Positions 13,119 to 43,449 of a stretch of 64,000 nucleotides of DNA are shown in pieces; position 1 is the first letter of the stretch; each line of letters opens with the position of its first letter. The stretch lies in the NCBI GenBank assembly GCA_016207925.1, contig JACQZB010000052.1, forward strand, positions 11,792 to 75,791, read 5' to 3'. The notes below the pieces were generated by a model. It was not told where the DNA came from. It ran no database searches and was given only the letters and a program-made list of their open reading frames with translations. This DNA comes from Nitrospinota bacterium. GTDB lineage: Bacteria > Nitrospinota_A > UBA7883. The position numbers and the translations under genes are program-made.

Positions 13119-13179
13119 GTTTGTCGTTGCCGCCGGTCATCATGATTAGGCAATGCGGTAATTATTGGGAGCGGTTTCG

Positions 13180-18713: not shown

Positions 18714-18722
18714 GAAAATCCC

Positions 18723-22049: not shown

Positions 22050-24189
22050 AAAGGACGTAACCCTCGACCGGATGCTGGTCAAAATCTCCCATCTGGACCG
22101 GTTGCTGGGGCTGGTGGGGGAGGTGATCATCACTTCCAACTCCATCGCCACCACCAACCGGCGCATCCAGGAGCATTACGACCGCAAGGCGCCGCTGGAC
22201 AAGCTTTCGATGGACATGATCAAGGCGGCGGAGGAGTCGAGCAACCGCATCTCCTCCGACCTGCATGGGCTGGTCATGGACATCCGCATGGTGGAGATCA
22301 AGGGCACGTTCCAGCGGTTCCGCCGCCCCATGCGCGACATGGCCAAGGAAGCCGGCAAGGAGGTGGAATTCGTCACCGAGGGGGAGGACACCCTGGTGGA
22401 CAAGACCATCGCCGAAAAACTGTACGATCCTATCAACCATCAGATACGCAACGCCATTGACCACGGGGTCGAGGACCCGTTTGAGCGCCAGCGCGCGGGA
22501 AAGCCCGCCAAGGCCAATGTGCTGTTAAAGGCGTACCAGCGCGAGAACAACATCTACATCGAAATCCGCGATGACGGACGCGGCATGGATCCGGACGCCA
22601 TCGCGCGCGCCGCCGTCGCCCGCGGGCTGGCCTCGGAGACGGAGACGGCGCGGCTTTCCCCGGAAGATAAGCTTCGGTTCATTTTCCAGGCCGGATTCTC
22701 CACCAAGGAAAAGGCCAGTACGCTCTCCGGCAGGGGCGTGGGGATGGACGTGGTCCGCAGCAACATCGAGGAGCTGGGCGGCGAGGTGGTGATAGACACG
22801 CGCATCGGCCAAGGCAGCGTGTTCATCTACAAGATTCCGCAAGTCACCGCCGTGAATATCCTCGACTGCCTTACGGTGCGCTCCGGCGCCAACCTGTTCG
22901 CGGCGCCCATACTCAACGTGGTCTCCACGGTGCGCGTGCCGCGCGCCAAGATACATGTCGCCTTTGGCAAGGGCAAGTCCATCACGCACCTGGGGAACAT
23001 CATCCCGCTGCACGACCTCAATGAGTTGCTGGGCGAGTCGCCGCTGGATCACGCCGGCGACGCCACCATCGTGATCCTGGAGGCCAAGAAGGGCCGCCTG
23101 GCGGTGGAGGTCAGCGAGTTTTTGGCGCCCGAAAAGCTGGTGTACACGCCGCTGGGAAGAATGTTCCACGTGCAGGGCGTCTCCGGCGTGACGGTGATGA
23201 GCGGCAACAAAATGGGGCTGGTGATTGACGCGGCGCAGCTTTTGGACCGTTCGCGCGGCATCGCCGCGGATGTCGAGGAGGAGGGGTCGGTCAGCGCGCT
23301 GGTCAAGAAGATCAAGGAGGGCGGCATTCAGGCCGCCGCACCGCCCCCGCCCGTGGAAAAGGCGCCCCCCGCCGTTACGGCGGCGCCTGCCGGCATGGTG
23401 GAAGCGGAAAGTTTCGGCGACCGCAAGGTGCTTTCCTCGGATGTGGGCAGGGAAATCGCCCACCGCGAGGAGTTCCTCATGGAACTTGAGGAAATGCTCA
23501 ACGCCGCCGGGGGGGAAATCCTTTCACTGGAGCAAAACCCCAACGACCGCGAACTGCTCAACCGCATCTTCCGCGCCTTCCATTCGATGAAGGGCAACCT
23601 GATGATGGTGGGCCTTACGGAGTTGGGATCATTTATCCACGAGGTCGAGGCCATCCTGGACCGGGCGCGCTCCGGCGATCTGACGGTGGACAGCGAAATC
23701 GTGGACATCCTGCTCGACGGCGCCGACGTGATCGGCGCGGCGCGCCAGGCGCTGGCGCAGGGCAAAGCGCCCTCCATTGACACGGGCTTGCTCAAAACAA
23801 TCGAGAAGTTCAAAAAACCGCTAGAGAAAAAAGAGGCCCAGATCGTGGACGTGAGCCAGCGCACCTTCCACCTGGGCGCGCTGGAGCGCTTTAACCTGCT
23901 CGCGCGCCGCCAGGCGGGCCAGTACGTCTATCAGGTATTCCTTTCCTTCAAACCGGAGTACCAGCAGCCGTTCCTCGTGGCGCTGCTCATCCTGCGGCGA
24001 CTTTCTGATATCGGCCTGATTTTCGGTTCCGTGCCCGCCGTGGAGGAGATTGAGAACCAGAGCGTGGGCACACAGCTTAAGGTCATGTTCGCTTCGCAGT
24101 ACGACTCGGAAAAACTGAAGGAGTACGTCGAGTCGCGGTTGGTGAAGTTCTACGACGTTACCGATTTTGAAATCCTTAAAACGTTCTGA
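22042..24189 (+). CDS. CheA-like histidine kinase with permuted domain order (P3 dimerisation, P4 HATPase, P5 CheW-like, HPt, then an unknown C-terminal domain)
   Basis: 715 aa. Overlaps the upstream REC gene by 8 nt. N-terminus starts with CheA P3 motif (LDRLLGLVGEVII). P4 N-box, G1 and G2 motifs present (HQIRNAIDHGVE, DDGRGMD, GRGVGMDVV). CheW-like domain around aa 270-410. HPt motif FRAFHSMKGN around aa 520. About 150 unassigned C-terminal residues. Confidence 0.75.
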   Translation: MTEKDVTLDRMLVKISHLDRLLGLVGEVIITSNSIATTNRRIQEHYDRKAPLDKLSMDMIKAAEESSNRISSDLHGLVMDIRMVEIKGTFQRFRRPMRDMAKEAGKEVEFVTEGEDTLVDKTIAEKLYDPINHQIRNAIDHGVEDPFERQRAGKPAKANVLLKAYQRENNIYIEIRDDGRGMDPDAIARAAVARGLASETETARLSPEDKLRFIFQAGFSTKEKASTLSGRGVGMDVVRSNIEELGGEVVIDTRIGQGSVFIYKIPQVTAVNILDCLTVRSGANLFAAPILNVVSTVRVPRAKIHVAFGKGKSITHLGNIIPLHDLNELLGESPLDHAGDATIVILEAKKGRLAVEVSEFLAPEKLVYTPLGRMFHVQGVSGVTVMSGNKMGLVIDAAQLLDRSRGIAADVEEEGSVSALVKKIKEGGIQAAAPPPPVEKAPPAVTAAPAGMVEAESFGDRKVLSSDVGREIAHREEFLMELEEMLNAAGGEILSLEQNPNDRELLNRIFRAFHSMKGNLMMVGLTELGSFIHEVEAILDRARSGDLTVDSEIVDILLDGADVIGAARQALAQGKAPSIDTGLLKTIEKFKKPLEKKEAQIVDVSQRTFHLGALERFNLLARRQAGQYVYQVFLSFKPEYQQPFLVALLILRRLSDIGLIFGSVPAVEEIENQSVGTQLKVMFASQYDSEKLKEYVESRLVKFYDVTDFEILKTF

Positions 24190-28334: not shown

Positions 28335-29354
28335 ATGGATACCATGGATTGCGGCGGCGCCCCCGCGGGCACCTTGCCGTTCAGCCAGGCGTTGGCGGAA
28401 CGCGGCGTCACGCTCACCCGGGCGAAAACCACGGCGCTGCAGGTCAACATGGGGCTGGTGTGCAACCTCTCCTGCCGCCACTGCCACGTGGAGGCGGGGC
28501 CGCGCCGGACGGAAAGTATGGACGAAGCCACCGTCCGGCGAACGGCGGACTACGCCGCGCGCGGAGAATTTCTTTCCGTGGACATCACCGGCGGCGCGCC
28601 GGAGTTGAACCCTCACCTGCGGTTATTGATCGGGCTTGTCCGGCCGCACGTCCAGCGGATCATGATCCGCACGAACCTGACGCTGCTGCGCCGTCCGCCA
28701 TATAGCAAGCTGATAGAGACCTTCCGCGAGAACCGTGTGGCGGTGGTCGCGTCGTTTCCCTCGGTCAACCAATCCCAGGCGGAGGCGCAACGGGGCGACG
28801 GCGTGTTTGATGACAGCGTGGACGCGCTGCGCGCGCTTAACGCCGCGGGATACGGGGCAGGGGATACGGGGCTTGACCTGATGCTGGTGGTCAATCCTTC
28901 CGGCTCGTTCATGGCGCCCCCGCAGGAGGCGGTGGAAAAACGTTTCCGCGAAACCCTTGCGCGCCGGTGGGGGATAACCTTCACCGGCCTTCTCGCCTTC
29001 TCCAATGTCCCCTTGGGCCGGTTCGGGCGATGGCTGGCCGAGTCGGGTAATCTGGAAAGCTATTACCGCAAATTGGACGAGGGATTTAATCCCTGCGCCC
29101 TGGCGGCGGTGATGTACCGTACGCAGCTGCGTGGCTGGCCCCGGCTTCTCCTGCGGCGGGGCGATCGCGCGGTAGGGGCGGCTCGATGGGCCGCCCGAAT
29201 CGGGCGAGGCGGCGCCTCGCCCCTACAGAGGATGTGTGAACGGAGAAATTGCGGGGGCGCAGAATGCCGCGCCTCCGCCAATTCATACATCCGCGCCTTT
29301 CCGCGTTACCCTGTACTCCAGAATCGTGCAATACAGGGCGGGCAGCGCGATTAA
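28335..29354 (+). CDS. radical SAM protein, ArsS-like (arsenosugar-biosynthesis rSAM / Cys-rich family); 3' end uncertain (frameshift or recoding)
   Basis: ORF 28245..29354, ATG 28335. LQVNMGLVCNLSCRHCHVEAGP matches the CxxxCxxC rSAM cluster in ArsS-type context. Frame-0 tail after about 29100 is Arg-rich junk that runs 72 nt into cusA. The +1 frame holds TGA (29110-29112) followed by the Cys-rich tail CTVRSCVAGPGFSCGGAIAR ending at 29175. Confidence 0.6.
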   Translation: MDTMDCGGAPAGTLPFSQALAERGVTLTRAKTTALQVNMGLVCNLSCRHCHVEAGPRRTESMDEATVRRTADYAARGEFLSVDITGGAPELNPHLRLLIGLVRPHVQRIMIRTNLTLLRRPPYSKLIETFRENRVAVVASFPSVNQSQAEAQRGDGVFDDSVDALRALNAAGYGAGDTGLDLMLVVNPSGSFMAPPQEAVEKRFRETLARRWGITFTGLLAFSNVPLGRFGRWLAESGNLESYYRKLDEGFNPCALAAVMYRTQLRGWPRLLLRRGDRAVGAARWAARIGRGGASPLQRMCERRNCGGAECRASANSYIRAFPRYPVLQNRAIQGGQRD

Positions 29355-32300
29355 CGACAGCAGGGTCACACTCACCATGCCGCCCACCATGGGGGCGGCG
29401 ATGCGCCGCATCACTTCGGCGCCCGCGCCTTCGCCGAACATGATGGGCGCCAAGCCGCCCAGGATGGCGAACGTGGTCATCATGATGGGCCGCACCCGCC
29501 CAATGACGCCCTCCAGCGTGGCCTCGCGCGCGTCCTGGACGGTATTCCACCGCCCCGCCGCGCGGCGCCGCTCAACCGCCAGGTTGATATACACCAGCTT
29601 GAGTACGCCGATTTCCGCCGCCACGCCGGCCAGGGCGATAAAGCCCACCCCCACCGCCACGCTGAAATGGTAGCCCAGCCACCACATCAGGTACAGCCCG
29701 CCGATGGCCGACAGCGGCAGCATCAGCATCACCAGCAGGCTTTCGGTGACCGCGCGGAAGTTCAGGTATAGCAGGATGAAAATCACCGCCAGCGTAAGCG
29801 GCACGATAACTTTAAGCCGCTCCGTCACGCGCTCCATGCTCTCGTATTGTCCGCTCCACTTCAGGCTGACGCCGGAGGGCAGTTTCACCCGTTCGGCCAC
29901 GCGCGCCTTGGCGCCCGCGACAAACGTGGCCATGTCCATCCCCTCGATGTCCACGTAGATCCAGGTATTCAGCCGCGCGTCCTCCGTCTTTATCATCATC
30001 GGGCCGGAGGTAAGCTCGATGTCCGCAAGCTGCGCCAGGGGGACCTGGGCGCCCATCATGGTGGAAACCAGCGTCCGGCGCAGCCGTTCCACGTCGTCGC
30101 GCATCTCGCGTCCATAGCGGACGTTGATGGGGTAGCGCTCCCGGCCCTCCACGGTGTATCCGATGGTCATGCCGCCGATGGCGCTGGCGATGACCTCCTG
30201 CACGTCGCCCACGTTAAGCCCATAGCGGGCCGCCGCGCCGCGCCGCACGCGGATGTCCAAAAACGATCCGCCCAGCGCGCGGTCGGCGAACACGCTGCGA
30301 AGCCCCGGCAGCCCGCGCAGCGCCGATTCAATCTCCACCGCCACCGTGTCCACCACGGCCAAATCCGGGCCTGCCACCTTGATCCCCACGGGGGTGCGGA
30401 TGCCGGTGGAGAGCATGTCAATGCGGGTTTTGATCGGCATGGTCCAGGCGTTGGTGACGCCGGGGAAGCGGATGGCGCCCTCCATCTCCGCCATCAAGGA
30501 CTCGGTGGTCACGCCGGGCCGCCACTGCGCGCGGGGTTTGAGCTTGACGATGGTCTCGATCATGCTCAAGGGGGCGGGGTCGGTGGCGGTTTCCGCCCGG
30601 CCCGCCTTGCCGAACACCCGTTCCACTTCCGGGAACGTTCGCAGAATGCGGTCGGTGTGCTGGAGTATCTCCCGCGCCTTGGTGACAGAGACGCCCGGCA
30701 GCGTGGTGGGCATGTACAGGATGTCGCCTTCGTCAAGGGTGGGCATGAACTCGCCGCCCACCTTTGTCAGGGGCAGCCACGTGGCCAGCGCCGCCGCTAG
30801 CGTGACCGCCAGCACCGCGCCCTTGTGGTTCAGCGCCCAGTGGGTGACGGGCCGCACCAGGGCGATGAACGCCAGCGTCAGGGGGTTCATCCGCTCCGGA
30901 ACCATGCCGCCCCGGATGAAGTACACCATCAGCGCCGGGGTGAGCGTGATGGCCAAGATCGCCGCGGAGGCCATGGCGAAGGTTTTCGTATAGGCCAGCG
31001 GCTTGAACAGCCTGCCTTCCTGATCCTCCAGCGTGAACACCGGAAGGAACGAGATGGTGATGATCATCAGGCAGAAGAAAAGCGCCGGGCCGACCTCCTT
31101 GGCCGCGTCAATCATGATGTCCGCGCGGGGCCGTTTTCCCCCCTCGGCTTCCAGTTTCTTGTGCGCGTTCTCGATCATTACCACCGAGGCGTCAATCATG
31201 GCGCCGATGGCGATGGCGATGCCGCCCAAACTCATGATGTTGGCGTTGATCCCCATCCAGCTTATGGCCATAAGCGCCATCAGGGCGCCCAGCGGCAGCG
31301 TGAGGATCGCCACGAAGGAGGAGCGCAGATGCATCAGGAACACCATGCACACCAGCGCCACGATCACGCTTTCCTCCACCAGCTTTTCCTTGAGGAACTC
31401 CACCGCGCGCAGGATCAAGGCGGAACGGTCGTAGGTCTCCACGATTTCCACCCCTTCGGGCAGGCCGCCGCGCAGGCGCTCGATTTTCTCGCGGACCAGT
31501 TCGATGGTCCTAAGCGCGTTTTCGCCGAACCGCATCACCACCACGCCGCCTACCGTCTCTCCCTCGCCATCCAACTCGGCGACGCCGCGCCGCAATTCCG
31601 GGCCGATGGTGATGTTGGCCACATCGCCCAGGTAAATAGGCGTGCCGCTTTCATTGGAACCGATGGTAACGCGGCGCAGGTCCTCCGGAGAACGGATGTA
31701 GCCGAAGGAGCGCACCATGAATTCGGTCTCGGCCATTTCCAGCAGGCGGCCGTCCACGTCCTGATTGCTTTTCTTGATCGCCTCGGTGACGCGCATCAGC
31801 GGGATGCCGTAGGCGGAAAGCTTATTGGGGTCAACCTCCACCTGGTACTGTTTGACGAAGCCGCCCACGCTGGCCACCTCCGCCACGCCGGGCACGGTTT
31901 GCAGCTCGTAGCGCAGGAACCAGTCCTGCAACGAGCGCAGTTGGGCCAGATCGTGCTTGCCGGAGCGGTCCACCACCGCGTATTCATACACCCAGCCCAC
32001 CCCGGTGGCGTCCGGACCCAGCACGGGGTTGGCGGCGGCGGGCAGCCGGCCCGCGACGCCGTTGAGGTATTCCAGCGTCCGGCTGCGCGCCCAATACAGG
32101 TCCGTGCCCTCCTCGAAAATGATGTACACAAAAGAAGTCCCGAAGAACGAGTAGCCCCGCACATTCTTCGCCTTGGGCACCGCCAGCATGGCCGTGGCCA
32201 AGGGGTAGGTGACCTGATCCTCCACCACTTGCGGCGTTTGGCCCGGATAATCGGTATAGATGATTACCTGCACGTCGCTTAAGTCCGGTATGGCGTCCAG

Positions 32301-32405
32301 CGGAAGATGCTTGACGATGTAGTAGCCCGCCACGGTGATCATGACCGTGGCCATAATCACCAAAAAACGGTTGCGCGCCGAAGCGGTGATAATCGCGTTG
32401 AGCAT
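29283..32405 (-). CDS. cusA: heavy-metal (Cu/Ag) efflux RND transporter, CusA/CzcA family
   Basis: ORF 29283..32420. Near-collinear similarity to CusA (PDLSDVQVIIYTDYPGQ, DATGVGWVYEYAVVDRSGKHDLAQLRSLQDWFLRYEL). ATG 32405 aligns with the CusA N-terminus. The alternative ATG at 32420 overlaps the cusB stop (ATGA). Confidence 0.92.
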   Translation of the reverse strand: MLNAIITASARNRFLVIMATVMITVAGYYIVKHLPLDAIPDLSDVQVIIYTDYPGQTPQVVEDQVTYPLATAMLAVPKAKNVRGYSFFGTSFVYIIFEEGTDLYWARSRTLEYLNGVAGRLPAAANPVLGPDATGVGWVYEYAVVDRSGKHDLAQLRSLQDWFLRYELQTVPGVAEVASVGGFVKQYQVEVDPNKLSAYGIPLMRVTEAIKKSNQDVDGRLLEMAETEFMVRSFGYIRSPEDLRRVTIGSNESGTPIYLGDVANITIGPELRRGVAELDGEGETVGGVVVMRFGENALRTIELVREKIERLRGGLPEGVEIVETYDRSALILRAVEFLKEKLVEESVIVALVCMVFLMHLRSSFVAILTLPLGALMALMAISWMGINANIMSLGGIAIAIGAMIDASVVMIENAHKKLEAEGGKRPRADIMIDAAKEVGPALFFCLMIITISFLPVFTLEDQEGRLFKPLAYTKTFAMASAAILAITLTPALMVYFIRGGMVPERMNPLTLAFIALVRPVTHWALNHKGAVLAVTLAAALATWLPLTKVGGEFMPTLDEGDILYMPTTLPGVSVTKAREILQHTDRILRTFPEVERVFGKAGRAETATDPAPLSMIETIVKLKPRAQWRPGVTTESLMAEMEGAIRFPGVTNAWTMPIKTRIDMLSTGIRTPVGIKVAGPDLAVVDTVAVEIESALRGLPGLRSVFADRALGGSFLDIRVRRGAAARYGLNVGDVQEVIASAIGGMTIGYTVEGRERYPINVRYGREMRDDVERLRRTLVSTMMGAQVPLAQLADIELTSGPMMIKTEDARLNTWIYVDIEGMDMATFVAGAKARVAERVKLPSGVSLKWSGQYESMERVTERLKVIVPLTLAVIFILLYLNFRAVTESLLVMLMLPLSAIGGLYLMWWLGYHFSVAVGVGFIALAGVAAEIGVLKLVYINLAVERRRAAGRWNTVQDAREATLEGVIGRVRPIMMTTFAILGGLAPIMFGEGAGAEVMRRIAAPMVGGMVSVTLLSLIALPALYCTILEYRVTRKGADV

Positions 32406-32416
32406 GGCCGCCTCCC

Positions 32417-33886
32417 TCAATGGCCCGCGTGGCCGCCGCGGGAGGGAGCGCCCCCCTCACCGGCGGATGGCGGCGTAATCATGTCCATGCCGGACATGCC
32501 GTTATCATCCGTTGGAGCCGTCATTTCCGGTTCCGGCGCGGACACCGGCGCGGCTGCTTGGCCGCCGTGCTGATGACCGGCGTCTGGCGCGCCGCCCATC
32601 TTGCCGATGGCCTCGCGCAGCTTGGATTCGGAATCAATCAGGAACTGCGACGAGGTGACCACCGTCTCGCCCTCTGACAGGCCGGAGAGTATTTCCACCT
32701 CGCCGCCGCTGTCTATCCCGGTGGTGACGGGGCGCGGCTCGAACCGCCCCCCGCCCAGGCTGATGAACACCAGCTTGCGCGCGCCGGTGCGGATCACCGC
32801 CTCCGAGGGGATGACCAGCGCGTCATGCGCCTCGCCGGCGCGGATCGCCACATCGCCGTACATGTCGAATTTCAAAACTCCGTCGCGATTGTCGAATTCA
32901 ACCCGCGCCTTGGCGGAGCGCGTCTTGGGGTCCAGATAGGGATAGATGTAGGTGATCTTCCCTTGCAGCGCGCGTCCCGGCGCCGCGGCGAGCGTCAGCA
33001 CCGCGGATTGCCCCACGCGCACGTAGGGGGCCTCGTACTCGTAAACGTCCGCGTTGACCCACACCCGCGAGGCGTCGGCGATTTCATACAGCGTGTCGCC
33101 CGGCATGATGTAGGAACCTTCGGTGACGTTTTTGGAGATGATCACCCCTGATACGGGGGAATGTATGTGCAGAGTTTTTTTCACCTGCCGGGTGCGTTCC
33201 AACTCTTCAATCTGGTGCGGTGGCACGTCGAACAGCGCCAGCCTGCGCCGGGACGACTCCAGCAGGCTTTCCCCGCCCTTGACGATGGCGTCATGTTCGC
33301 CCCGCCGCACCGCGTCGCGGTACTTGAGCGCCAGGATGAACTCCTCCTGCGTGGTCACCAGGTCGGGGCTGTACAGCTCAAGCAGAATGTCGTCCACATT
33401 TATTTTCCGGCCCGTTTCGTTGACATACAGCTTCTCGACCCACCCCATCACTTTGGGCTGGATGCGGGCCAGCCGGGTCTCGTCGTAGGTGACAATGCCG
33501 GTGGTGCGTATCTCGCGCGCCAGCGTGGTCCGGCGCGCCGTGGCGTACCGCACCCCAATGGTCTGCGCCACCGCGGGATCAATGCTCACCACGCCGGCCG
33601 CCGCCGCTTCATCCGCATACACGGGGATATAATCCATATTCATGGAATCCTTGGCGGGGCGGTCACTGGTAATAGAGGGATCCATCGGATGGCGGTAGAA
33701 AAGGATTGCGCGCCCCTTTTCATCACTCTTGGCCGCGGGCGCCTGCGCGGCGCCGCGATGCGACAGATAGCTCCAGCCATAGTATCCCGCCGCGATGGCA
33801 AGCGCCAGCGCCACCGTCAGCGCGAACCGTTTCCTGTACACAGCGGGAGTATTCACCCCGCCCGTTTCGCTGTTGAATTCGCTCAT
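32417..33886 (-). CDS. cusB: efflux RND periplasmic adaptor subunit, CusB-like, with C-terminal His/Met-rich tail
   Basis: 489 aa. Membrane-fusion-protein fold motifs. His/Met-rich C-terminus (DAGHQHGG...GMSGMDM...GGHAGH). Overlaps cusA. Confidence 0.85.
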   Translation of the reverse strand: MSEFNSETGGVNTPAVYRKRFALTVALALAIAAGYYGWSYLSHRGAAQAPAAKSDEKGRAILFYRHPMDPSITSDRPAKDSMNMDYIPVYADEAAAAGVVSIDPAVAQTIGVRYATARRTTLAREIRTTGIVTYDETRLARIQPKVMGWVEKLYVNETGRKINVDDILLELYSPDLVTTQEEFILALKYRDAVRRGEHDAIVKGGESLLESSRRRLALFDVPPHQIEELERTRQVKKTLHIHSPVSGVIISKNVTEGSYIMPGDTLYEIADASRVWVNADVYEYEAPYVRVGQSAVLTLAAAPGRALQGKITYIYPYLDPKTRSAKARVEFDNRDGVLKFDMYGDVAIRAGEAHDALVIPSEAVIRTGARKLVFISLGGGRFEPRPVTTGIDSGGEVEILSGLSEGETVVTSSQFLIDSESKLREAIGKMGGAPDAGHQHGGQAAAPVSAPEPEMTAPTDDNGMSGMDMITPPSAGEGGAPSRGGHAGH

Positions 33887-35089
33887 GGCTCACTCCCGGT
33901 GAAATCCGCCCCGGTAAGGGCGTCTATTTCCGCGTAACGTTCCCGCAGGCGCCGTTGGGCTTCCTCGCGCGCCAGTTGATACTTGAGCAGCCCCAACTCC
34001 GCGCCGATGACCGCCATGGATTCGAGTTTGTCCACCCGGTAGGCGGCCATGGAGCTTTCGAAGGTCTGCGCCCCCTGGGGTATGATGCCGGTGTCGTACA
34101 GCCGGATGGTTTCCCGCTCGCGCCGCACGCCGGCCAATTTACTGGCCAGTTCCGACCGCAGCCGCAACTCTTCACCCGCCAGTTCATCGTGGGCCGCCCG
34201 TTCGGCGAACCGCGCGCCCTTGATTAGCCGGTCCTGCTTGGCGGCGCGCCACAGGGGGACACTCACCGAAGCCATGACAGAGGCCATGTCGGGCCGCTCC
34301 ATTTCCCCATCGTCGCGCTGGCCGTATTGCGCGGTGAGGGTGACATCATAACCGGCCATGCCTTCCGCCACGCGCGCGCCCGCCGCCGTTTCCGTGATTT
34401 TCGCGCGCGCCATCAGAAGGCGCGGGGCGCGCGGCTGGGCGCCTTTCCACAGCGCCTCCAACTCATCCACCCGCCCCTCGATGGACGGCGGGGCCGCCGC
34501 CACGAACGCGGCGGAGGGGTCGCGCCCAAGTGCGGAGGCGGCGCGGTAACGGGCGCGATGCAGCATTTCGGCAAGTTCGAGGCGCCGTTCGATCAACATG
34601 CTGCGCTCCACCTGCGCTTGCAGCACGTCCGCCTGGGTCACCTTGCCCGCGGCGTACTTGGCGGTGATGACCCCCACCATGCCGTCGAGCGCCGCCTCGT
34701 TGCGCGCGCATGGCCCGCCGCGCGCGGAGCATCTCCGCCCGCGCCAGCCCCATGTCCCGCTCCGCCGCGCGCCGCGTGGCGCTGGGTATGGTCTGGGTGA
34801 CGCCGATCATCTTTTGCGTCATCTCCTCCTTGTCCAGCCGCCAACTGTCCACCGGAACATCCGTGACGCCCAGTTCGATCATCGGGTCCATCCACGCCAT
34901 CGCGGCGGAGGCGCCTTCAACGGCGGCGGCGACCTCGTGATCGAGCGCGCGAAGCTCCGGGTTATTGCCGGCCAGTTCCTGGACAAGCGTCTCAAACGAG
35001 GGGGCCGCCTCCGCCGCCGCCGCGCGCGAAGCGCCCAATAGCGCCGCGAGCGCCAATGCCACTGCTGTAATTCGCATTTTCCGATCCAT
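33883..35089 (-). pseudogene. cusC: TolC-family outer-membrane efflux protein (CusC-like), interrupted by a 1-nt frameshift in a (GC)4 run near 34701-34713; pseudogene or sequencing error
   Basis: Two adjacent ORFs (34463..35146 and 33883..34680) both carry TolC-like sequence. The frame changes within tgcgcgcgcatgg. Signal peptide MDRKMRITAVALALAALLGASRAAAA, with GGAGAAGAG Shine-Dalgarno before ATG 35089. Confidence 0.6.
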
Positions 35090-35190
35090 TGCTGCTCTTC
35101 TCCCCACGGGTGAACGAGCGGGTTGCGCCAGCGCGCGGACGGACATATGCCCGCGCGGGTTGACACATTACGCGCGTGAGCGCGCGAAGG

Positions 35191-35526
35191 TCAGGCGCGA
35201 GGGGGACGGTCTATGAGGGACGCGAAGGGAAGAAGATTGGGCGCGTCCGGAGCGGACGGCATGGAGGCGAACAGCGCGGAGAAACCTTCCGAAGCGCCCA
35301 TGTCCAGGTTCAGCGCGGCGCCATGGCAACAGACCAGGCCGGCGTCGCAACTGTCGCAAGGCGCGGGCGCATGATCCTGATGCGGGGAGGGGATGTGCTC
35401 GCAGGGCGAAGGCGGCTGCGCGGCTTGATGGGCGTGCGTTTGCGCCGCATCAGCCTCAGTGGCGTACGCCAAGGACACCATCAGCCCCATTGCTAGGGCC
35501 ACCGCCGCGCGGATTATCGTGTTCAC
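35191..35526 (-). CDS. small secreted Cys/His-rich protein, putative periplasmic metal-binding protein upstream of cusCBA
   Basis: 111 aa, GTG start with GGAG Shine-Dalgarno. Signal peptide. Mature part enriched in His and Cys (PCEHIPSPHQDHAPAPCDSCDAGLVCCHG). Confidence 0.5.
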   Translation of the reverse strand: MNTIIRAAVALAMGLMVSLAYATEADAAQTHAHQAAQPPSPCEHIPSPHQDHAPAPCDSCDAGLVCCHGAALNLDMGASEGFSALFASMPSAPDAPNLLPFASLIDRPPRA

Positions 35527-35772
35527 ACCTGCTCCACCGTATCGTTACGTTTACTTTACCACACCCGGCGCATTCGCGCCATGGTGATTCGCGCACGGCT
35601 CGATTTACCTAACCGTCAGTATGCAGGGTATATTAAAATAATTCACACGGTGGGAGCCTCGGCGCGCCGCGAGGGACGGAGCAAACACGGATGAATCGCC
35701 ACCCCAAGGGGCGGACCGGGGCGCGCTTCTTGAGTTATAATTTATATAACTAAAAGCATACCGGAGGTTTGG

Positions 35773-38374
35773 ATGACCCTGCATGCGGCCCGCTCGGCGC
35801 GGCGCATCGTCATCATCTACCTGGTATTCGGGCTGGCCTGGATTTCCCTGTCCGACCTGGCGGCGTTGTGGCTGGCCGGTGACGCCATGGAATGGCAATT
35901 CAGCCAGACGTTCAAGGGCAGCGCTTTCGTCGTCATCACCGGCGCCCTGCTGTACGCGCTGATCGGCAAGGCGTTCGGGAGCCTTTCCCTGGCCGAGCGG
36001 GAAAACGCGCGAATCAACCGCCTGTACCGGATGCTCTCCGCCAGCAACCACGCCGTGGTCCACGCCGCTTCGCGGGAGGAGGCGATCCGCACGGCGCTCG
36101 ATGTAATCACGCAGACCGGCGGCTACCGGCTGGCGTGGGTGGGCTTCCTCATCCCCGCTGATGAGCGCAAGCGTATCCGCATCGCCGCCGCCGCGGGGGC
36201 CACCGCGGCGCTGGAGGGTCAGGAATTCACCTGGGACAACTCGCCGCAAGGCCAATCCCCGGCGGGACGCGCGATAAAATCGTGCCGCCCCGCCACCTGC
36301 CACGACACCGCGCGCGACCCCACTTTTGTCTATTGGCGCGACATGGCCGCGCGGGCCGGTGTGCGCGCCATGGTGGGTTTGCCGCTTGTGGTGGAAGGGG
36401 AGATCGCCGGAGCGCTGACCGTGGGGGCGGATTCCGTGAATGTGTTTGACGACGAGGAGATGGAAATCCTGCAGGAGGTGTCCAGCGATCTGGCGCACAT
36501 TATCGAGAACCTGAAAATCACCGAGGCGCGCAAATCGGCGGAGCGCGGTCTGGCGCGTTCCGAGGCGCGTTGGCGCTCGCTGGTGTCCCAGGCGCCGGAC
36601 TATATCCTGACCGTGAACCGCGAGGAAATAATCACGTTCGTCAACCATTCGGCGCCGGGCGCCCCCCCGCCGGAGCGGATCGTGGGCATGAACGTGTACA
36701 GCTACCTTCCTCCCGATCAGCGTGAAACGGTGCGCTCCGCCCTGGCGAACGCTTTTGAGCGGGGCCAGCCGACAACGTATGAAGCCAAGGTCAACGTCCC
36801 CGGCGTGGGCGAGCAGTGGTACCTGTCCATCTGCGGGCCGGTGGTGGTGGACGGCGTGGTGGAAAGCGCCATGTTCATGGCCCACGACATCACCGCGCGC
36901 AAGGAGCGCGAGCGCAAGCTGTTCGAGGCGGAGCAGAAGCTCGAAACGCTGGTCAATTCCATAGACGGCATCGTGTTCATCGTTGACCGGCAGGGCCGCT
37001 ACACCTCGCTGCATGGCCGCTGGTTCGACCGGTACGATACCGACGCCCAGGCCTACCTCGGCAAACACGCCGGGGACCTTTTTGGCGCCCGTTACGCCGA
37101 AACGCACACCGCCGCATACCGCCGCGCGCTGGAGGGCGAGTATGTCATCTTTGAATCCATCGTGACCATCGGGGGGCACAAGCGCTTTTTCCAGACCTCG
37201 CTGTCCCCCACCTACGACAAGGCGGGCGCCGTCACCGGCGCCGTGGGCATCGGGCGCGATATAACGAAGATCAAACCCGCCGAGGAGAACAGGCTACACC
37301 GCCGAGGAGGTGATCGGCCAGAACCCCAGATTCCTCAAGTCCGGCGATACGCCGCAGGAAGTGTACAGGGAATTGTGGGAAACCATAACCACGGGCGGCG
37401 CCTGGCGAGGCGAACTGCTGAACAAAAAAAAGAATGGCGAATATTTTTGGGAAACAGCTTCCATCTCCCCCATCCGCGACAGCCAGGGGAACATCACCCA
37501 CTTCCTGGCGGTCAAGGAGGACATCACGGAGCGCAAAAGCTACGAGTCCTCGTTGCGCGCCTCCAACGAAATGCTCACCAAGACCCTTAACGAAATGGTG
37601 CGGCTGCAAACCAGCCTGATACGCACTGAAAAACTGGCCTCGCTCGGCGCCCTGTCCGCCGGCGTGGCGCACGAAATCAAGAATCCACTCAACATCATCG
37701 CCACCACCGTGCAGTTGCTGGAAATGGAAGCCCAGGTGCCGGAGGAAAGCCGCGCGCAGTTCGCCACCATCCTTGAACAGGTGCAGCGCGCCGCGCGCAT
37801 CACCGAAAACCTGCGCGACTTCGCCCGCGAACGCAGGCCGGAAATACGCGCGGTCAACCTGCAGGCGCTGCTGGATAAAACCCTGGCGCTGGTGCGCTAC
37901 GAAATGGGGCTGGAAAACATCAAGTCCGTCACTGAATTCCCGGAAGACCCGATCACCCTGATGGCCGACGCTGACCAGTTGGCGCAGGTATTCCTCAACA
38001 TCATCTCCAACGCGCGCGACAGCATGAACGAACGGCAGGCCGCCGAGCCGTATGACCAGTTGGCCGCGAAAGGATGGGAAGGCGTCCTGCGCATCACCGT
38101 GCGCCGCCGGGATGGGCGCGTGGTGATAGAGTTCCATGACCAGGGCAAGGGCATCCCGCAGGAGGCGATGGACAAACTGTTCGATCCTTTTTTCACCACC
38201 AAGCCCGAAGGCAAGGGCACGGGGCTGGGTCTGTCCATCTCCCACAGCATCATCGAAAACCACGGCGGAAGCATCCGCGCCGCCAGTATGCCGGGTGAAG
38301 GTTCCACCTTCACCATCTTGCTGCCCCTTGAGGAGGAATCCCCCGGCGCCACGGATATACTGGAGCGCCGGTGA
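35773..38374 (+). pseudogene. sensor histidine kinase (2TM-GAF-PAS-PAS-[truncated PAS]-HisKA-HATPase), disrupted by frameshift and apparent internal deletion near 37285
   Basis: ORFs 35773..37590 and 37310..38374. First ORF turns to junk after DITKIKPAEE. Second ORF resumes mid-PAS (TGYTAEEVIGQNPRFLKSG) with its N-terminal half missing, then an intact HisKA H-box (HEIKNPL) and HATPase (GTGLGLSIS). ATG 35773 has a GGAGG Shine-Dalgarno. Confidence 0.6.
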
Positions 38375-38639
38375 CCATCCGGCTGAGAAAATATATGTTA
38401 ATAAGTCAAGTATTTATCGCTATTTATTGATTTGGTTTCTTATGGGAAAGGCGCCTTGTTTATATACAGGAAGGCTGAGAGGCTCCGGTTCAAACCACCA
38501 CCCGTCTTGGCTGCGGCGCGAACAAATGAGTTGAATCCCTAACCGCCAAGTGTTCATCTATCTTTAAACTTACCGTTTCGCCGGGGGGCGTAGCGACGGC
38601 CTGGCTGGTGGAAAGGTTTTTGTCGGGAAAGGCAGCAAC

Positions 38640-38996
38640 ATGAAATTCGCCGTGCAAGTTCTTGAGGGGCCGTACAACAACCAGGCGTCGGACACGGCTT
38701 ACAACTTTATCAAGGCCGCGTTGGAACGGGGACACCAGATTGTGCGGGTGTTCTTCTATCACAACGGCGTGCTCAACGTGAACAATCTGGCCGAGCCGCC
38801 GCGGGACGACCGCAACGTGTATGCCCGCTGGACGGAGCTTGGACGCGACAAGGGGATAGACATTGTGGCCTGCATCGCCGCGAGCAAACGGCGCGGGATC
38901 AAGGACGGGCACATCATCGAGGGTACCCGCATCTCCGGCCTGGGCCAACTCACCGACATGGCCATTGAGGCCGACCGCCTGATCACCTTCGGTTGA
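38640..38996 (+). CDS. dsrE: sulfur-relay protein DsrE (TusD homologue)
   Basis: 118 aa. MKFAVQVLEGPYNNQASDTAYNF and the VACIAASKRRG active-site Cys context closely match DsrE of sulfur oxidisers. Confidence 0.85.
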   Translation: MKFAVQVLEGPYNNQASDTAYNFIKAALERGHQIVRVFFYHNGVLNVNNLAEPPRDDRNVYARWTELGRDKGIDIVACIAASKRRGIKDGHIIEGTRISGLGQLTDMAIEADRLITFG

Positions 38997-39009
38997 AAGG
39001 AGCATCACG

Positions 39010-39402
39010 ATGAGCGATGAGATGGACAACGGCGGCGGCGAGAACCGCAAGAAGATCGCCTTTGTCATGCGCCATGCGCCGCATGGCAGCATATACAGCT
39101 ACGAGGGGTTGGAGACGGTGCTGATCGTGGCGGCCTACGAGCAAGACCTTTCGCTGATTTTCGCGGGCGACGGCGTGTTTGCGCTGGTCGCCGCGCAGGA
39201 CACGTCCGCCGTCGGCATTAAGGGGTTCATCAAGACCTACCGCGTACTGGACGGCTATGATGTGAACAAGATATATGTGGACCGCGAAAGTATGGAAAAA
39301 CGGGGTTTGAAGCCGGAAGACTTCATCATCCCCGTGGAGGTCAAGGAAGCCGAAGAAATCGCGGCCATCATGGAAGAACAACACGCCACCATCCCCTATT
39401 AA
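39010..39402 (+). CDS. dsrF: sulfur-relay protein DsrF (TusC homologue)
   Basis: 130 aa DsrE/F-fold. AAAGGAG Shine-Dalgarno. Positioned between dsrE and dsrH. Confidence 0.75.
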   Translation: MSDEMDNGGGENRKKIAFVMRHAPHGSIYSYEGLETVLIVAAYEQDLSLIFAGDGVFALVAAQDTSAVGIKGFIKTYRVLDGYDVNKIYVDRESMEKRGLKPEDFIIPVEVKEAEEIAAIMEEQHATIPY

Positions 39403-39421
39403 CGAAGAAAGGAACGGCGCC

Positions 39422-39715
39422 GTGCTGCATACCGTCAACAAATCGCCCTTTTCCAGCGACGCGCTTAACGAGTGCGCCCGCTTCGCCTCCACCGGCTCGG
39501 ACATATTGCTGATCGAGGACGGCGTGTACGCCGCCAAGGCCGGGTCGGCCTACGAACCCGCGCTAAAAGACGTGGTGAAGAAATGCGCCGTGTACGCGCT
39601 GGAGGCCGATTTAAAGGCCCGCGGCGTCACCGCGCTGGTTCCGGGCGTCAAGACCGTCGCCTACGCCGGCTTTGTGGAATTGGTGGAGAAAAGCAAGGTT
39701 CACACCTGGTTGTAA
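39422..39715 (+). CDS. dsrH: sulfur-relay protein DsrH (TusB homologue)
   Basis: 97 aa, GTG start. MLHTVNKSPF...ILLIEDGVYAA closely matches the DsrH N-terminus. Confidence 0.8.
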   Translation: MLHTVNKSPFSSDALNECARFASTGSDILLIEDGVYAAKAGSAYEPALKDVVKKCAVYALEADLKARGVTALVPGVKTVAYAGFVELVEKSKVHTWL

Positions 39716-39852
39716 GGGCGGTGTTTGGCCCGCCTTCCATCACGGGACGCGCAAAGCCCCGTCTGCCGGATGTTTGCCTTACGGTGAATCCTTCTGCGAT
39801 AATCAACATCATTATGTTTCAGGCGCGGGCAGGGGGCCGCTCGCGGGCGGCA

Positions 39853-39880
39853 TTGACACGATATCGCTTTGATGTAAGAT
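39853..39880 (+). promoter_or_regulatory. sigma70-like promoter TTGACA-16-TAAGAT upstream of the small-peptide/FeS/NrfD genes
   Basis: -35 TTGACA 39853-39858 and -10 TAAGAT 39875-39880. Lies between dsrH and the downstream operon. Confidence 0.4.
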
Positions 39881-39931
39881 ACGCGCCGTTATCGCCACTC
39901 CGCCAGTAAACTTCCGTAAAGGGAGAGTGCG

Positions 39932-40075
39932 TTGCAAAAGTCGAAAGGGTTGGCCGCTGTCGCGATTTTTTTCGCGGTTCTGGCGTTTCCCCTGCTGTAC
40001 AACGCCTCCACCATCGGACTTTTCAACAGCGCCGCCGCCGCTACCAATCCTGTCATAGCCAAACCGGGCCAATGA
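39932..40075 (+). CDS. 47-aa single-TM membrane peptide, translationally coupled to the FeS subunit gene
   Basis: Not in the ORF track (under 60 aa). TTG start with GGGAGAG Shine-Dalgarno 6 nt upstream. Reads LQKSKGLAAVAIFFAVLAFPLLYNASTIGLFNSAAAATNPVIAKPGQ. Stop TGA 40073-40075 overlaps ATG 40072 of the next gene (ATGA). Confidence 0.45.
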   Translation: MQKSKGLAAVAIFFAVLAFPLLYNASTIGLFNSAAAATNPVIAKPGQ

Positions 40076-40836
40076 CCATTGACCGGCGGGAATTCATCAT
40101 CATCGGCGCCACCGTAGCGGCGGGGACGGCGTTATCCGCGGTTACACCCGCGCTGTCGCACACCGTCGCCGGAAACCAATCCCCGCTCGACGTTCCCCCC
40201 TCCGCCGCGTCCGGGAAAAACCAGTGGGGAATGGTCATAGACATCGCCAAGTGCACGGCGGACTGCACCGCCTGCACGGACGCCTGCCGCAAGGAGAACA
40301 ACGTCCCCTTATTCGGCGACCCCAAGCGGGACATCCATTGGATCCGCAAGCTCACCATACGGCAGAAGGGCGTCCCCAACGCCACGGAGCGCTATCTGCC
40401 GGCCATGTGCTTCCATTGCGAGCATCCGCCGTGCGCCCATGTCTGCCCCGTGGCGGCCACGTTCCGCCGCAAGGACGGCATCGTGCTGGTGGACAAACAC
40501 CGCTGTATCGGCTGCCGCTACTGCATGGTGGCCTGTCCCTACAAGGCCCGCTCGTTCGTCAGTCAGCATGTGGAGGCGGGGCCGGACGCCAACCCCAACG
40601 CGCCCATCCGCATGCACGGGGTGGTGGAAAAGTGCGACTTCTGCGTCCACCGCATAGACGCGGGGAAGGAGCCGGCTTGCGTGGAAGCCTGCCGCCAGGC
40701 GGGAAATGGCGCGATGGTGTTCGGTAATTTCGGCGATCCAGACGGCGAGATCAGCCGTATCGTGGCCACCGGCGAGGCGGAGCAGTTGCGCGCCGACCTG
40801 GGAACCAATCCCCGCGTGTTCTACACCCATCTGTAA
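40072..40836 (+). CDS. Tat-exported 4Fe-4S ferredoxin-type iron-sulfur subunit (DsrO/PsrB/HmcB family)
   Basis: 254 aa. Twin-arginine signal (RREFIII). Four Cys clusters of the PsrB/DsrO type (CTADCTAC, CEHPPCAHVCP, CIGCRYCMVACP, CDFC...C). Confidence 0.85.
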   Translation: MTIDRREFIIIGATVAAGTALSAVTPALSHTVAGNQSPLDVPPSAASGKNQWGMVIDIAKCTADCTACTDACRKENNVPLFGDPKRDIHWIRKLTIRQKGVPNATERYLPAMCFHCEHPPCAHVCPVAATFRRKDGIVLVDKHRCIGCRYCMVACPYKARSFVSQHVEAGPDANPNAPIRMHGVVEKCDFCVHRIDAGKEPACVEACRQAGNGAMVFGNFGDPDGEISRIVATGEAEQLRADLGTNPRVFYTHL

Positions 40837-40845
40837 GGCGCGGCC

Positions 40846-42072
40846 ATGGAGATCAAGTTCTCACGGATCGAGGTTGACTCGAAAAAGTACCTCGCCTTTA
40901 TGACTGCCATCGGCCTGGTGGCGGCGCTGGCGCCCGCGTCGGCGATCTGCCTGTTCCTGGAGGGCCACCGGGTCACCAACATGACCAACCAGGTGCCGTG
41001 GGGAATGCCGATTGTCATGGCGATCTACCTGATCGGCGCAAGCGCGGGGTCGCTGGTGCTCTCCGCGATGTCCTCGGTGTTCGGGCGCGTTGAGTTTAAA
41101 CCTTTCGCGCGGATGGCGGCGACGCTGGCGGCGATCCTGATCGTGGCGGCGCTGGCCTCCATTATCCTGGACTGGGGAAGGCCCGACCGGCTGATGATAC
41201 CGTTTTTCCATTTCCAGCCCCGCTCGGTGTTTTCGCTCAACGCCATCCTGTACTCCTCGTACATGCTGTTGTGCCTGGTGTACCTGTGGGCGATGTTCAA
41301 CGGGAAAAAACATCTGGAGCGCCTGTTGGGGTTGACGGCGGTGTTTCTGGCGGTGCTGGTGCATTCCGGCACGGGCGCCATTTTCGGCTTTGTGTACGTG
41401 CGCGAGCTGTACGGTTCGCCGTTGCTGCCGCCGAGTTTCATCGCCGCGGCGCTCTCCTCCGGCACGGCATTGATGATAATCATTCTGTACTACACCTTCC
41501 GGCTTTCTGGCCGCTATCTGGATCCCCGGCTGCTCACCAGCCTGGGCAAGCTGATGGGGGTGTTCATCATCGTGGTGCTGTATTTCCTGTTTGTGGAGAA
41601 CGTCACGCGCGCTTATGCCCCCGCCAATTACGAGGAGTCGTCGTTTCTGCTGCTCCATGGCGGCAAGTACACGGCGCTGTTCTGGATCGGGCTGGTGGGG
41701 CTGGGGATGATCGTCCCCATGATTGTGGGGCTGAACCAAAGGTTGTCGCGCAACATTCCCCTGTTGCTCGGCGCCAGCGTTCTGCAACTCGCCGGAGTAT
41801 TGATCGAGCTGTTCATTATCGTCATCCCCGCGCAGGTGTTCCCCGTGGAATTGTTCCACGACCAGGAAGTCAGCAGCGTGTTTCTGGACGGCCAATTCGC
41901 GGATTACTCCGTATCGTTGATCGAGTGGACGTACAGCGCCGGGATGATGGGCGCGGTGGTGTTCCTGTTCGCGCTGGTGATCCGGCTATGGCCCATGGTC
42001 CCCACGGAAGCCCGCCACCTGGAGCCGGAAGAAGAACTGGCCGCTGAAAAGGTGGAAGAAGCGGCGGTATAA
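40846..42072 (+). CDS. NrfD/PsrC-family polytopic membrane quinone-interacting subunit (DsrP-like)
   Basis: 408 aa with about 10 TM helices. NrfD-type hydrophobic pattern. Immediately downstream of the FeS subunit. Confidence 0.8.
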   Translation: MEIKFSRIEVDSKKYLAFMTAIGLVAALAPASAICLFLEGHRVTNMTNQVPWGMPIVMAIYLIGASAGSLVLSAMSSVFGRVEFKPFARMAATLAAILIVAALASIILDWGRPDRLMIPFFHFQPRSVFSLNAILYSSYMLLCLVYLWAMFNGKKHLERLLGLTAVFLAVLVHSGTGAIFGFVYVRELYGSPLLPPSFIAAALSSGTALMIIILYYTFRLSGRYLDPRLLTSLGKLMGVFIIVVLYFLFVENVTRAYAPANYEESSFLLLHGGKYTALFWIGLVGLGMIVPMIVGLNQRLSRNIPLLLGASVLQLAGVLIELFIIVIPAQVFPVELFHDQEVSSVFLDGQFADYSVSLIEWTYSAGMMGAVVFLFALVIRLWPMVPTEARHLEPEEELAAEKVEEAAV

Positions 42073-42073
42073 C

Positions 42074-42101
42074 AGCCGCCACCCCTTGCGGGGCGGCGGC
42101 T
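42074..42101 (+). terminator. 12-bp GC-rich hairpin after the NrfD-like gene (probable terminator)
   Basis: agccgccacccc-ttgc-ggggcggcggct, one mismatch. Directly follows the stop at 42072. No clear T-tract. Confidence 0.35.
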
Positions 42102-42348: not shown

Positions 42349-43449
42349 TCATGCCGCTTCCTCCCGGAAAATCTTGAAAGCGTCCACCGCTTCTTTCAGG
42401 TTTATCCCGTCCATCGGTAACGCGGGCGTGACAGCCAGCGTTTCAGCGAGGGGCCGGGTATCAATCTCAACGCCGCCGAACAACGCGGCGCCCTCGTCCG
42501 CGGAGGAATCGTCCAGCGGTGAAGGTTCGTTAAGCGCCGGGCGGTTGGCGGGGATAGGGCGCTTTTCAACCGGCAAATCCTCTTCAACGCCCCCCACCAG
42601 CGCCATATCGCGCGAAAGCTGATCGTCGGCGGACGGCTCCAATGCGCGGAATTTGTGCGGCAAGTCGGTGGATTCAATCACTCCTGAACCCTTGAGCACA
42701 ACCAGCCGCTCGATAAGGTGTTCCAATTCCCGGATATTGCCCGGCCAGGTGTACGCGCGCAACAGCGCCATGGTTTCCGGAGTGATGCCGGTGATGCTCC
42801 GCTTTTTGATCCGGTTGAACAGCCGGATAAAATGCGTAATCAGCATATTTATGTCCTCGCCGCGCTCGCGCAGGGGAGGGGCCTCGATGGGGATTACGTT
42901 GAGCCGGTAATACAAATCCTCGCGGAACTTGCCTTCCTCAATGGCTTTTTCCAGGTTCTTATGTGTCGCCGCGATTACCCGCACGTTGACTTTTATGGTG
43001 CGGCTGCCGCCCACCCGTTCGAACTCCTGTTCCTGCAATACGCGCAACAGCTTGATCTGCAGGGTGGGGCTCATATCCCCTATTTCATCGAGGAACACCG
43101 TGCCCTTGTCAGCAAGCTCGAATTTGCCCACGCGGGTGCGAATGGCCCCGGTGAACGAACCCTTTTCGTGCCCGAAAAGCTCCGATTCCAGCAATTCTTC
43201 AGGTATGGCTCCGCAATTGACGATCACCAAGGGATTGGCGGCCCGATCGGAATTGAAGTGGATGGCGCGGGCGATAAGCTCCTTGCCCGTGCCGCTTTCA
43301 CCGAGCACCAGCACGGTGGAGTCGTTATCCAGCAAGCTGGTGATGGTTCCCAGCACACGCTTGAGCGCGCGGCTTTCCCCAATGAAATGGGAAAAGTCCG
43401 GCCCTCGGCTTACCTCCGTGGCGGGAGCCTCCGCTAATTCCAGCGCCAT
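42349..43449 (-). CDS. sigma-54-dependent transcriptional activator, AAA+ core only (no N-terminal sensor domain); C-terminal HTH apparently missing or out of frame
   Basis: 366 aa. Walker [15 protein letters not shown]-like (GSFTGA), Walker B (VFLDEIGDM) and [10 protein letters not shown] motifs, with about 25 residues before the AAA+ domain. Frame-0 C-terminus ends at [16 protein letters not shown], where an HTH normally continues. Confidence 0.85.

Follow-up and report, generated by a model that had tools for sequence, protein, structure and literature searches.

The window analysed here, a 64,000-nt stretch of contig JACQZB010000052.1 from the metagenome-assembled genome (MAG) of a Nitrospinota bacterium, carries a set of dsr sulfur-oxidation genes in which dsrE, dsrF and dsrH are followed by a 47-codon open reading frame (ORF) and by dsrO and dsrP, all on the plus strand; the positions given below are those of the window, and numbers prefixed with L denote comparison loci or contigs. 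The proteins encoded by this region are deposited at NCBI as MBI4828177-MBI4828185 ('Nitrospinae bacterium' MAG, locus tags beginning with HY804_). The evidence presented below indicates that this is very probably a known type of Nitrospinota rDsr (sulfur-oxidation) dsrEFH-dsrJOP locus, from a groundwater MAG, in which dsrJ has suffered a strain-specific deletion of 230 bp.

The first three genes are dsrE (38640..38996, 118 aa), dsrF (39010..39402, 130 aa) and dsrH (39422..39715, 97 aa), whose products exceed the curated NCBIfam cut-offs of the TusD/DsrE (TIGR03012, 125 bits for a cut-off of 89), TusC/DsrF (TIGR03010, 124 bits for 94) and TusB/DsrH (TIGR03011, 94.5 bits for 49) models, and are 70%, 75% and 66% identical, respectively, to the corresponding proteins of the dsr cluster at L002. 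The three paralogous subunits, together with Cys78 in DsrE and the N-terminal Cys (Cys18) in DsrH, place these products in the DsrEFH family; the roles of the two cysteines were reportedly described by Stockdreher and colleagues. The sulfur-oxidiser type of the three genes, which the original prediction had recognised, is borne out, with orthologues found in Nitrospinota dsr clusters.

The gene pair that follows is formed by dsrO (40072..40836, 254 aa) and dsrP (40846..42072, 408 aa), and the iron-sulfur (FeS) protein with four clusters and a twin-arginine translocation (Tat) signal (RREFIII), as well as the NrfD-type membrane protein, that had been predicted here can both be read from the sequence and the profiles. 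Given its 283 bits for the DsrO model (NCBIfam NF045797, cut-off 200), its Tat signal, its four 4Fe-4S motifs with 16 Cys and the adjacent dsrP, the FeS protein is a DsrO, 68% identical to that of L002, and the proposed check of DsrOP against PsrBC-like affiliation is settled in favour of the former, with the protein remaining far below the NCBIfam cut-offs for QrcC (160 bits for a cut-off of 400), TtrB (158 for 416), ArrB (156 for 450) and NrfC (140 for 378).

The 408-aa protein, an NrfD-family quinone-interacting membrane subunit (Pfam NrfD, 201 bits), scores 70 bits against the NrfD model (cut-off 348) and 58 against QrcD (cut-off 570), and its best NCBIfam match is DsrP (NF045798), at 89.5 bits, which is under the cut-off of 350. 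As the DsrP proteins from complete Nitrospinota dsr clusters reach only 97-101 bits with the same model, the 89.5 bits of the window protein can be traced to a model tuned to sulfate reducers, and not to membership of a different family. Its assignment to DsrP is based on orthology, given its 65-71% identity to the products of the gene that follows dsrJ-dsrO in dsr clusters, and all the invariant columns of the DsrP family alignment are retained. The FeS/NrfD pair shares its superfamilies and its membrane topology with PsrBC, NrfCD, QrcCD and TtrBC but, unlike these systems, misses the respective profile cut-offs and has no gene for a molybdopterin or multihaem catalytic partner in its flanks.

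Relatives were sought by scanning one genome per GTDB species, which yielded 78 loci onto which the dsr proteins were mapped. Nearly all the homologues of the NrfD-type protein belong to Nitrospinota MAGs, with identities of 54-72%; the best match of the GTDB scan reached 70%, with no genome of the species itself among the results, and the scan of Joint Genome Institute (JGI) metagenomes with DsrO gave no close relative (best 66%). All the Nitrospinota loci that extend 5' of dsrO show the order dsrJ-dsrO-dsrP, the ORF at that place encoding 113-135 aa with three CxxCH motifs, and these loci usually also hold dsrAB, dsrC, dsrMK, dsrL, dsrN and dsrEFH within 10 kb. Two relatives for which long contigs exist have the orthologues of the FeS and NrfD proteins inside full dsr clusters (dsrN, dsrAB, an ORF of 115-125 aa, FeS, NrfD), with dsrC, dsrMK, dsrL and dsrEFH nearby.

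The genes dsrN-OsmC-dsrE-dsrF-dsrH-dsrJ-dsrO-dsrP are, furthermore, contiguous in L016 (Ca. Nitrospinota M3_3B_026), so it is already known for this phylum that dsrEFH can directly precede dsrJOP. The dsr genes, with one or two copies of dsrEFH, have been reported in the Nitrospinota classes UBA7883 and UBA9942 (PMC10839748), where they are often split over several loci, and the window resembles such loci, L016 among them, in having dsrEFH on the same strand directly 5' of dsrJOP, with 65-78% protein identity. L016 differs in its flanks, with dsrN upstream and dsrC, dsrAB, dsrL and dsrMK within 10 kb downstream, positions that are occupied in the window by a histidine kinase and a resistance-nodulation-division (RND) operon, and by a sigma-54 activator, HPRT and ComEC. 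The combination of genes, which had gone unrecognised in the original prediction, is thus already known and is not new, given the linkage in L016 and the orthology of the FeS/NrfD pair to the dsrOP of complete clusters.

The nearest strains (the Logan contigs L171, L172, L004 and L005, from SRR22388045/SRR22388275, along with the Rifle scaffold ANAN16-1 scaffold_6418, which is L166/L169) have the same genes and downstream synteny as the window, and differ from it in that their dsrJ is intact. The closest of these, L171/L172 (Logan, SRR22388045/SRR22388275), is 95.7% identical to the window at the nucleotide level and has the same dsrE-dsrF-dsrH-dsrJ-dsrO order, with a dsrJ of 126 aa and three CxxCH motifs. 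The sister strain, represented by a groundwater scaffold from Rifle (L166) and a second contig (L167), has a DsrO that is 94% identical, with DNA identity of ~85%, and at the corresponding place carries an intact dsrJ of 123 aa, whose CxxCH motifs likewise number three.

The 47-codon ORF of the window (39932..40075, plus strand, TTG start), deposited as the hypothetical protein HY804_05130 (MBI4828180.1), had been interpreted as a new small subunit, overlapping the next gene through an ATGA. The ORF and its overlap were confirmed, and the new subunit was not, given that the encoded sequence, LQKSKGLAAVAIFFAVLAFPLLYNASTIGLFNSAAAATNPVIAKPGQ, matches the N-terminal membrane anchor and linker of the DsrJ of the relatives (113-135 aa) along its full length. 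The anchor shares 40 of 45 residues with the DsrJ of L166 and lies directly 5' of dsrO, as is expected of a DsrJ. Of the gene, the TTG start, an AGGGAG Shine-Dalgarno sequence, the anchor and the linker are left, and the axial Cys and all three of the CxxCH motifs that are found in every intact orthologue are gone. The remnant has no family match in NCBIfam or Pfam, including the DsrJ profile NF038038 (cytoc_DsrJ), which the intact sister proteins match over their whole length, at 85-90 bits for a cut-off of 100.

The ORF ends one codon short of a conserved haem-ligating Cys, at the point where the proteins of the relatives run on into the haem domain: the relatives read KPGQC, the window reads KPGQ followed by a stop, and the deletion starts in that very codon. 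In Nitratidesulfovibrio vulgaris, this conserved residue, which ligates one of the DsrJ haems, is Cys45 (10.64898/2026.08.25.746951). A three-way alignment established that the window is shorter than the intact strains by exactly 230 bp at dsrJ, with the missing segment being bounded by GGCCAATG before CGTG on the one side, and by GCCATG before ACCATTGACC on the other. The junction lies at 40072..40075 (plus strand; in BLAST coordinates, L171 1601 to 1829 against window 40074 to 40072) and presents an ATG microhomology, which is found as CAATG and CCATG in the intact alleles.

Since 230 cannot be divided by three, the reading frame moves onto the TGA of the ATGA, and the apparent translational coupling results from the deletion end-point having fallen at the start codon of dsrO; in the intact alleles, dsrJ likewise overlaps dsrO, by 11 nt. 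A simple frameshift in dsrJ was ruled out, since the distance from 39932 to dsrO is too short for a haem domain in any frame, and no haem domain was found in any frame between dsrH and dsrO. The 47-aa ORF is, as judged from its sequence, a pseudogenised stub of dsrJ that retains the membrane anchor only, and not an independent or new subunit. The cytochrome partner that the original prediction had found to be missing was once present as dsrJ, and lost its haem domain through the deletion, while the conservation that had been proposed as a check on the ORF is lacking, as the two closest strains carry a full trihaem dsrJ at this place.

The spacer upstream of the remnant contains a putative promoter, TTGCCT-18-(TG)cGATAAT (39774..39803, plus strand), which was identified by scanning and is conserved in the window, L171 and L166. 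The promoter that had been predicted earlier, TTGACA-16-TAAGAT (39853..39880, plus strand), exists as a sequence, with 10/12 consensus matches, and a promoter is indeed to be expected in this spacer, but this site is less conserved than that at 39774, reading AAGACA/TAAAAT in L171 and GTGACA/GCAGAT in L166. Both sites are consensus matches only, and the two found compare with a chance expectation of 1.2 +/- 1.2. No sigma-54 site of the -24/-12 type (TGGCAC-N5-TTGCW, with up to 4 mismatches) was found in the spacer between dsrH and dsrJ, and only matches with 4 mismatches occur 5' of dsrE; Rfam models matched neither the window nor any of four comparison loci.

In the sister strain (L166/L168/L169), a 10.5-kb block that extends from the RND pump to dsrH, and contains the RND pump, the membrane fusion protein, the outer-membrane efflux protein, a 110-aa ORF, the histidine kinase and dsrEFH, is inverted relative to the window (29288-39773). 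One breakpoint lies beside the RND gene (29288) and the other just 5' of the conserved dsrJ control region, where homology with L166 restarts exactly at 39774. Together with the conservation of the site at this position, the restart suggests that dsrJOP would have an upstream control region of its own, independent of dsrEFH. The inversion leaves the dsrEFH of the sister strain pointing away from dsrJOP, at a distance of 10 kb, so the conserved linkage of the two gene sets, which was also to be checked, does not hold in this strain. The gene calls of one sister-strain assembly divide dsrH (L168 10783-11076) between two ORFs of 44 and 46 aa, which may reflect a frameshift or a stop.

The remaining dsr genes of the window have no frameshifts (dsrE, dsrF, dsrH, dsrO and dsrP), and the ratios of nonsynonymous to synonymous divergence (dN/dS) between the window and L166, at a dS of about 0.55, are 0.071 for dsrO and 0.063 for dsrP, values that compare with 0.090 for the aspartyl-tRNA synthetase and 0.11-0.25 for the efflux genes. 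On the terminal branch, these five dsr genes combined have accumulated 31 synonymous and 4 nonsynonymous changes (8 and 1 in dsrE alone), and the dsrJ stub 2 synonymous and 3 nonsynonymous changes (Fisher p = 0.03 against the five intact genes). By this measure, the five intact genes appear to have been functional until very recently, or to be so still. One of the two DsrP changes on the branch of the window is R322L (41809-41811), at a residue that is Arg in at least 90% of 26 relatives, which gives E-L-F in place of the E-R-Y motif; this change alone is too little to argue for decay.

The window was also searched by tblastn with DsrA, B, C, E, F, H, J, K, L, M, N, O and P from two relatives, and no match to dsrA, dsrB, dsrC, dsrM, dsrK or dsrN was found anywhere in the 64 kb, as the original prediction had stated for the flanks; nothing was recovered beyond E, F, H, O, P and a GltD/DsrL-like gene, and the rest of the window contains housekeeping and signalling genes. 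In four relatives (L010, L013, L017 and L019), too, over 10 kb separate dsrJOP from dsrAB, and given this dispersal of the dsr genes in the phylum, their absence from the flanks says little. The remaining dsr genes, if present, would be expected in other parts of the genome, a distribution that several relatives show. The DsrL candidate (14300-15883) was set aside as likely GltD-type, with 31% identity to DsrL and glutamate-synthase genes adjoining it. It belongs to a row of four genes on the plus strand (14300-19796), the GltD/DsrL-like flavoprotein, an ORF with no Pfam match, a Glu_synthase FMN-domain protein with a ferredoxin motif and an ORF with no match; this row probably encodes a split glutamate synthase of the archaeal type, and does not represent dsrL.

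In the cytoplasm, DsrEFH reportedly hands sulfane sulfur to DsrC, as is said to be established for Allochromatium vinosum, and DsrMKJOP joins the chemistry of DsrC to the quinone pool. At the locus described here, dsrEFH would encode the cytoplasmic sulfur transferase and dsrJOP, as a separately promoted operon, the periplasm-facing module of DsrMKJOP. The J-O-P order, the Tat-exported DsrO with four clusters, the NrfD-type DsrP and the N-terminal anchor of DsrJ are shared with the JOP module of A. vinosum, N. vulgaris and Archaeoglobus fulgidus, the last known from cryo-electron microscopy (cryo-EM; 10.64898/2026.08.25.746951), whereas the dsrJ of the window is without the whole trihaem domain and has no dsrMK adjacent to it or elsewhere in the 64 kb.

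The cryo-EM work has proposed an electron path of DsrP-DsrO-DsrJ-DsrM-DsrK and that DsrO provides a His ligand to a DsrJ haem, and the deletion of dsrJ in N. vulgaris abolished both sulfate and sulfite respiration (10.64898/2026.08.25.746951). The normal route at the present locus would run in the same way, from the quinone site of DsrP through the FeS clusters of DsrO and the haems of DsrJ, and then to DsrM and DsrK. The 230-bp deletion, occurring between short ATG repeats, removes the entire haem-binding domain of DsrJ, with the stub encoding at most a membrane helix, and without the DsrJ haems, the wire that carries electrons from DsrO to DsrM would be cut, so that DsrO and DsrP would be electrically separated from DsrM, and the JOP module would be non-functional in this strain.

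A number of observations weigh against this interpretation. Both dsrO and dsrP are free of signs of decay and may have a function that has outlasted the loss of the DsrJ haems; the nonsynonymous excess of the stub comes from 5 substitutions only; and the search for dsrAB, dsrC and dsrMK covered the 64-kb window. There are, in addition, other lineages in which dsrOP is found without dsrJ nearby, namely four loci in MAGs labelled as Deltaproteobacteria or Spirochaetales (L035, L053, L074 and L075), where dsrOP lies beside dsrAB, divergent from it, and no dsrJ-like ORF with CxxCH was found within about 3 kb 5' or 6 kb 3' of dsrO. The same four loci contain, at about 9000-9260, a nearly invariant element of ~55 nt, located ~120 nt 5' of dsrO, which includes a CRP/FNR-like palindrome, TGTGCGAATTTTCACA, and has no match in Rfam.

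A further point of this kind is that the dsrJ deletion may be an artefact of assembly or consensus, with dsrJ, and three other genes that are also broken in the window, being intact in the organism and the gaps of 77-230 bp arising during the building or curation of a MAG from short reads, an explanation that deserves serious attention even though it is regarded as unlikely. The first of these genes is the OEP/TolC-like outer-membrane efflux gene of the RND operon (33883..35146, minus strand), which is split in two frames, as two overlapping ORFs that both match Pfam OEP, by a window-specific, frameshifting deletion of 77 bp near 34703-34726, with CGCG flanks; its orthologue, of 420 aa, is intact in L166/L168. 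The second is the histidine kinase (35773..38374, plus strand; GAF-PAS-PAS-PAS-HisKA-HATPase, with the Pfam matches distributed over two ORFs and a switch of frame), in which the decay that had been noted earlier is due to a deletion of 104 bp at 37291/37292 that shifts the frame and removes the N-terminal part of the third PAS, the L166 orthologue being intact (902 aa). The third is the sigma-54 activator downstream on the minus strand (42349..43449), which Pfam identifies as had been predicted, and which has the AAA+ domain and no helix-turn-helix (HTH), given an in-frame deletion of 111 bp at ~42372 that removes the C-terminal HTH_8; the 403-aa orthologue of L166 has HTH_8, and neither L166 nor the 96% strain L004 lacks the 111 bp.

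There are thus four window-specific deletions (77, 104, 111 and 230 bp) within 7.7 kb, spaced roughly 2.3-2.8 kb apart, and no further large indel in the other 22 kb open to comparison, a clustering that speaks for an artefact and is marginal only (p about 0.06). Similarly, all four gaps are absent from the relatives, and two of them even from the 96% strain, while purifying selection on the terminal branch is strong for the adjoining genes and the source is a MAG. On the other hand, microhomology of 3-4 bp is seen at three of the four junctions, a length that is characteristic of genuine slippage deletions and would not suffice to lead a de Bruijn assembler astray, and the dsrJ stub has relatively more nonsynonymous changes than its neighbours, as would be expected after a real loss of function.

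Another scenario, which is rather improbable, is that of a decaying pathway, in which the strain would be losing Dsr sulfur oxidation altogether, with dsrAB, dsrC and dsrMK already lost, dsrJ and the nearby regulators put out of action, and dsrEFH, dsrO and dsrP set to follow. The lack of any core dsr gene in the 64 kb would be in keeping with this process, as would the damage to the kinase beside dsrE, to dsrJ itself and to the activator beside dsrP, and the substitution of the conserved Arg322 of DsrP. The five remaining genes are, however, free of frameshifts and retain the strong synonymous bias described above, and the absence of core genes from the flanks is uninformative where several relatives also keep dsrJOP over 10 kb away from dsrAB.

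A real deletion would make the strain a natural knock-out of the dsrJ haem domain that retains dsrO, dsrP and dsrEFH under purifying selection, and DsrOP, perhaps together with an anchor peptide whose translation is coupled to that of dsrO, might have a role that is independent of the DsrJ haems, as may also apply to the few lineages with dsrOP and no dsrJ, although such a role is considered very improbable. It is slightly less probable still that, as the original prediction held, the FeS and NrfD proteins constitute a functional, periplasm-facing quinone module of two subunits with a new coupled subunit containing a single transmembrane (TM) segment, tied to an orphan dsrEFH. This proposal draws on the start, the Shine-Dalgarno sequence, the TM helix and the ATGA overlap that the ORF retains, on the intact and conserved dsrO and dsrP, on the few other lineages with dsrOP and no dsrJ, and on the contact of the DsrJ helix with DsrM and the bound menaquinone in the cryo-EM structure (10.64898/2026.08.25.746951). 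It is countered by the lack of conservation of the 47-aa form, with a full cytochrome in both nearest strains, by the origin of the stop codon as a by-product of a frameshifting deletion, by the inversion that breaks the dsrEFH-dsrJOP linkage in the sister strain, and by the need for the DsrJ haems in electron flow, given that dsrJ knock-outs do not respire (10.64898/2026.08.25.746951).

An equally faint prospect is that the three small genes are tusBCD, acting in tRNA 2-thiouridine synthesis and unrelated to the adjoining dsrOP, for, despite the TusD and TusB names given by the Prokaryotic Genome Annotation Pipeline (PGAP), the NCBIfam models that span both TusBCD and DsrEFH, and the homology to E. 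coli TusBCD, which has the same active-site Cys78 in its D/E subunit, the orthologues, at 65-78% identity, are embedded in Nitrospinota dsr clusters (L009, L012, L016, L025, L032 and L037), the E-F-H-J-O order is common to L016 and L171, and the context has no tusE or mnmA.

Two other genes of the window have an unusual composition. A CheA-like kinase (22042-24189, plus strand) has a permuted domain order, with the dimerisation, HATPase and CheW domains followed by C-terminal Hpt and P2 domains, the usual order having Hpt-P2 first, and given that the 716-aa orthologue in the sister strain (L168 16240-18390) presents the same permutation, it is not an assembly error. A second gene (13165-14139, plus strand) encodes two DUF1858 repeats and has a weak match, under the Pfam cut-off, to the N-terminal helices of haem-copper oxidase subunit I.

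Finally, should the dsrJ deletion prove to be real, the strain would be a natural dsrJ mutant that could show whether DsrOP works without DsrJ, a role that the current evidence does not favour. The significance of the dsrEFH-dsrJOP locus with a truncated dsrJ is mainly that of a correction, given that the hypothetical protein HY804_05130, which resembles a new subunit beside the FeS/NrfD pair, is a gene remnant. The curated cut-offs of NF045798 and NF038038 (350 and 100) miss the oxidative-type DsrP and DsrJ of the Nitrospinota, which are consequently deposited as 'polysulfide reductase NrfD' or 'hypothetical protein', and it is labels such as 'polysulfide reductase NrfD' and 'TusD' that invite the misreading of these loci.

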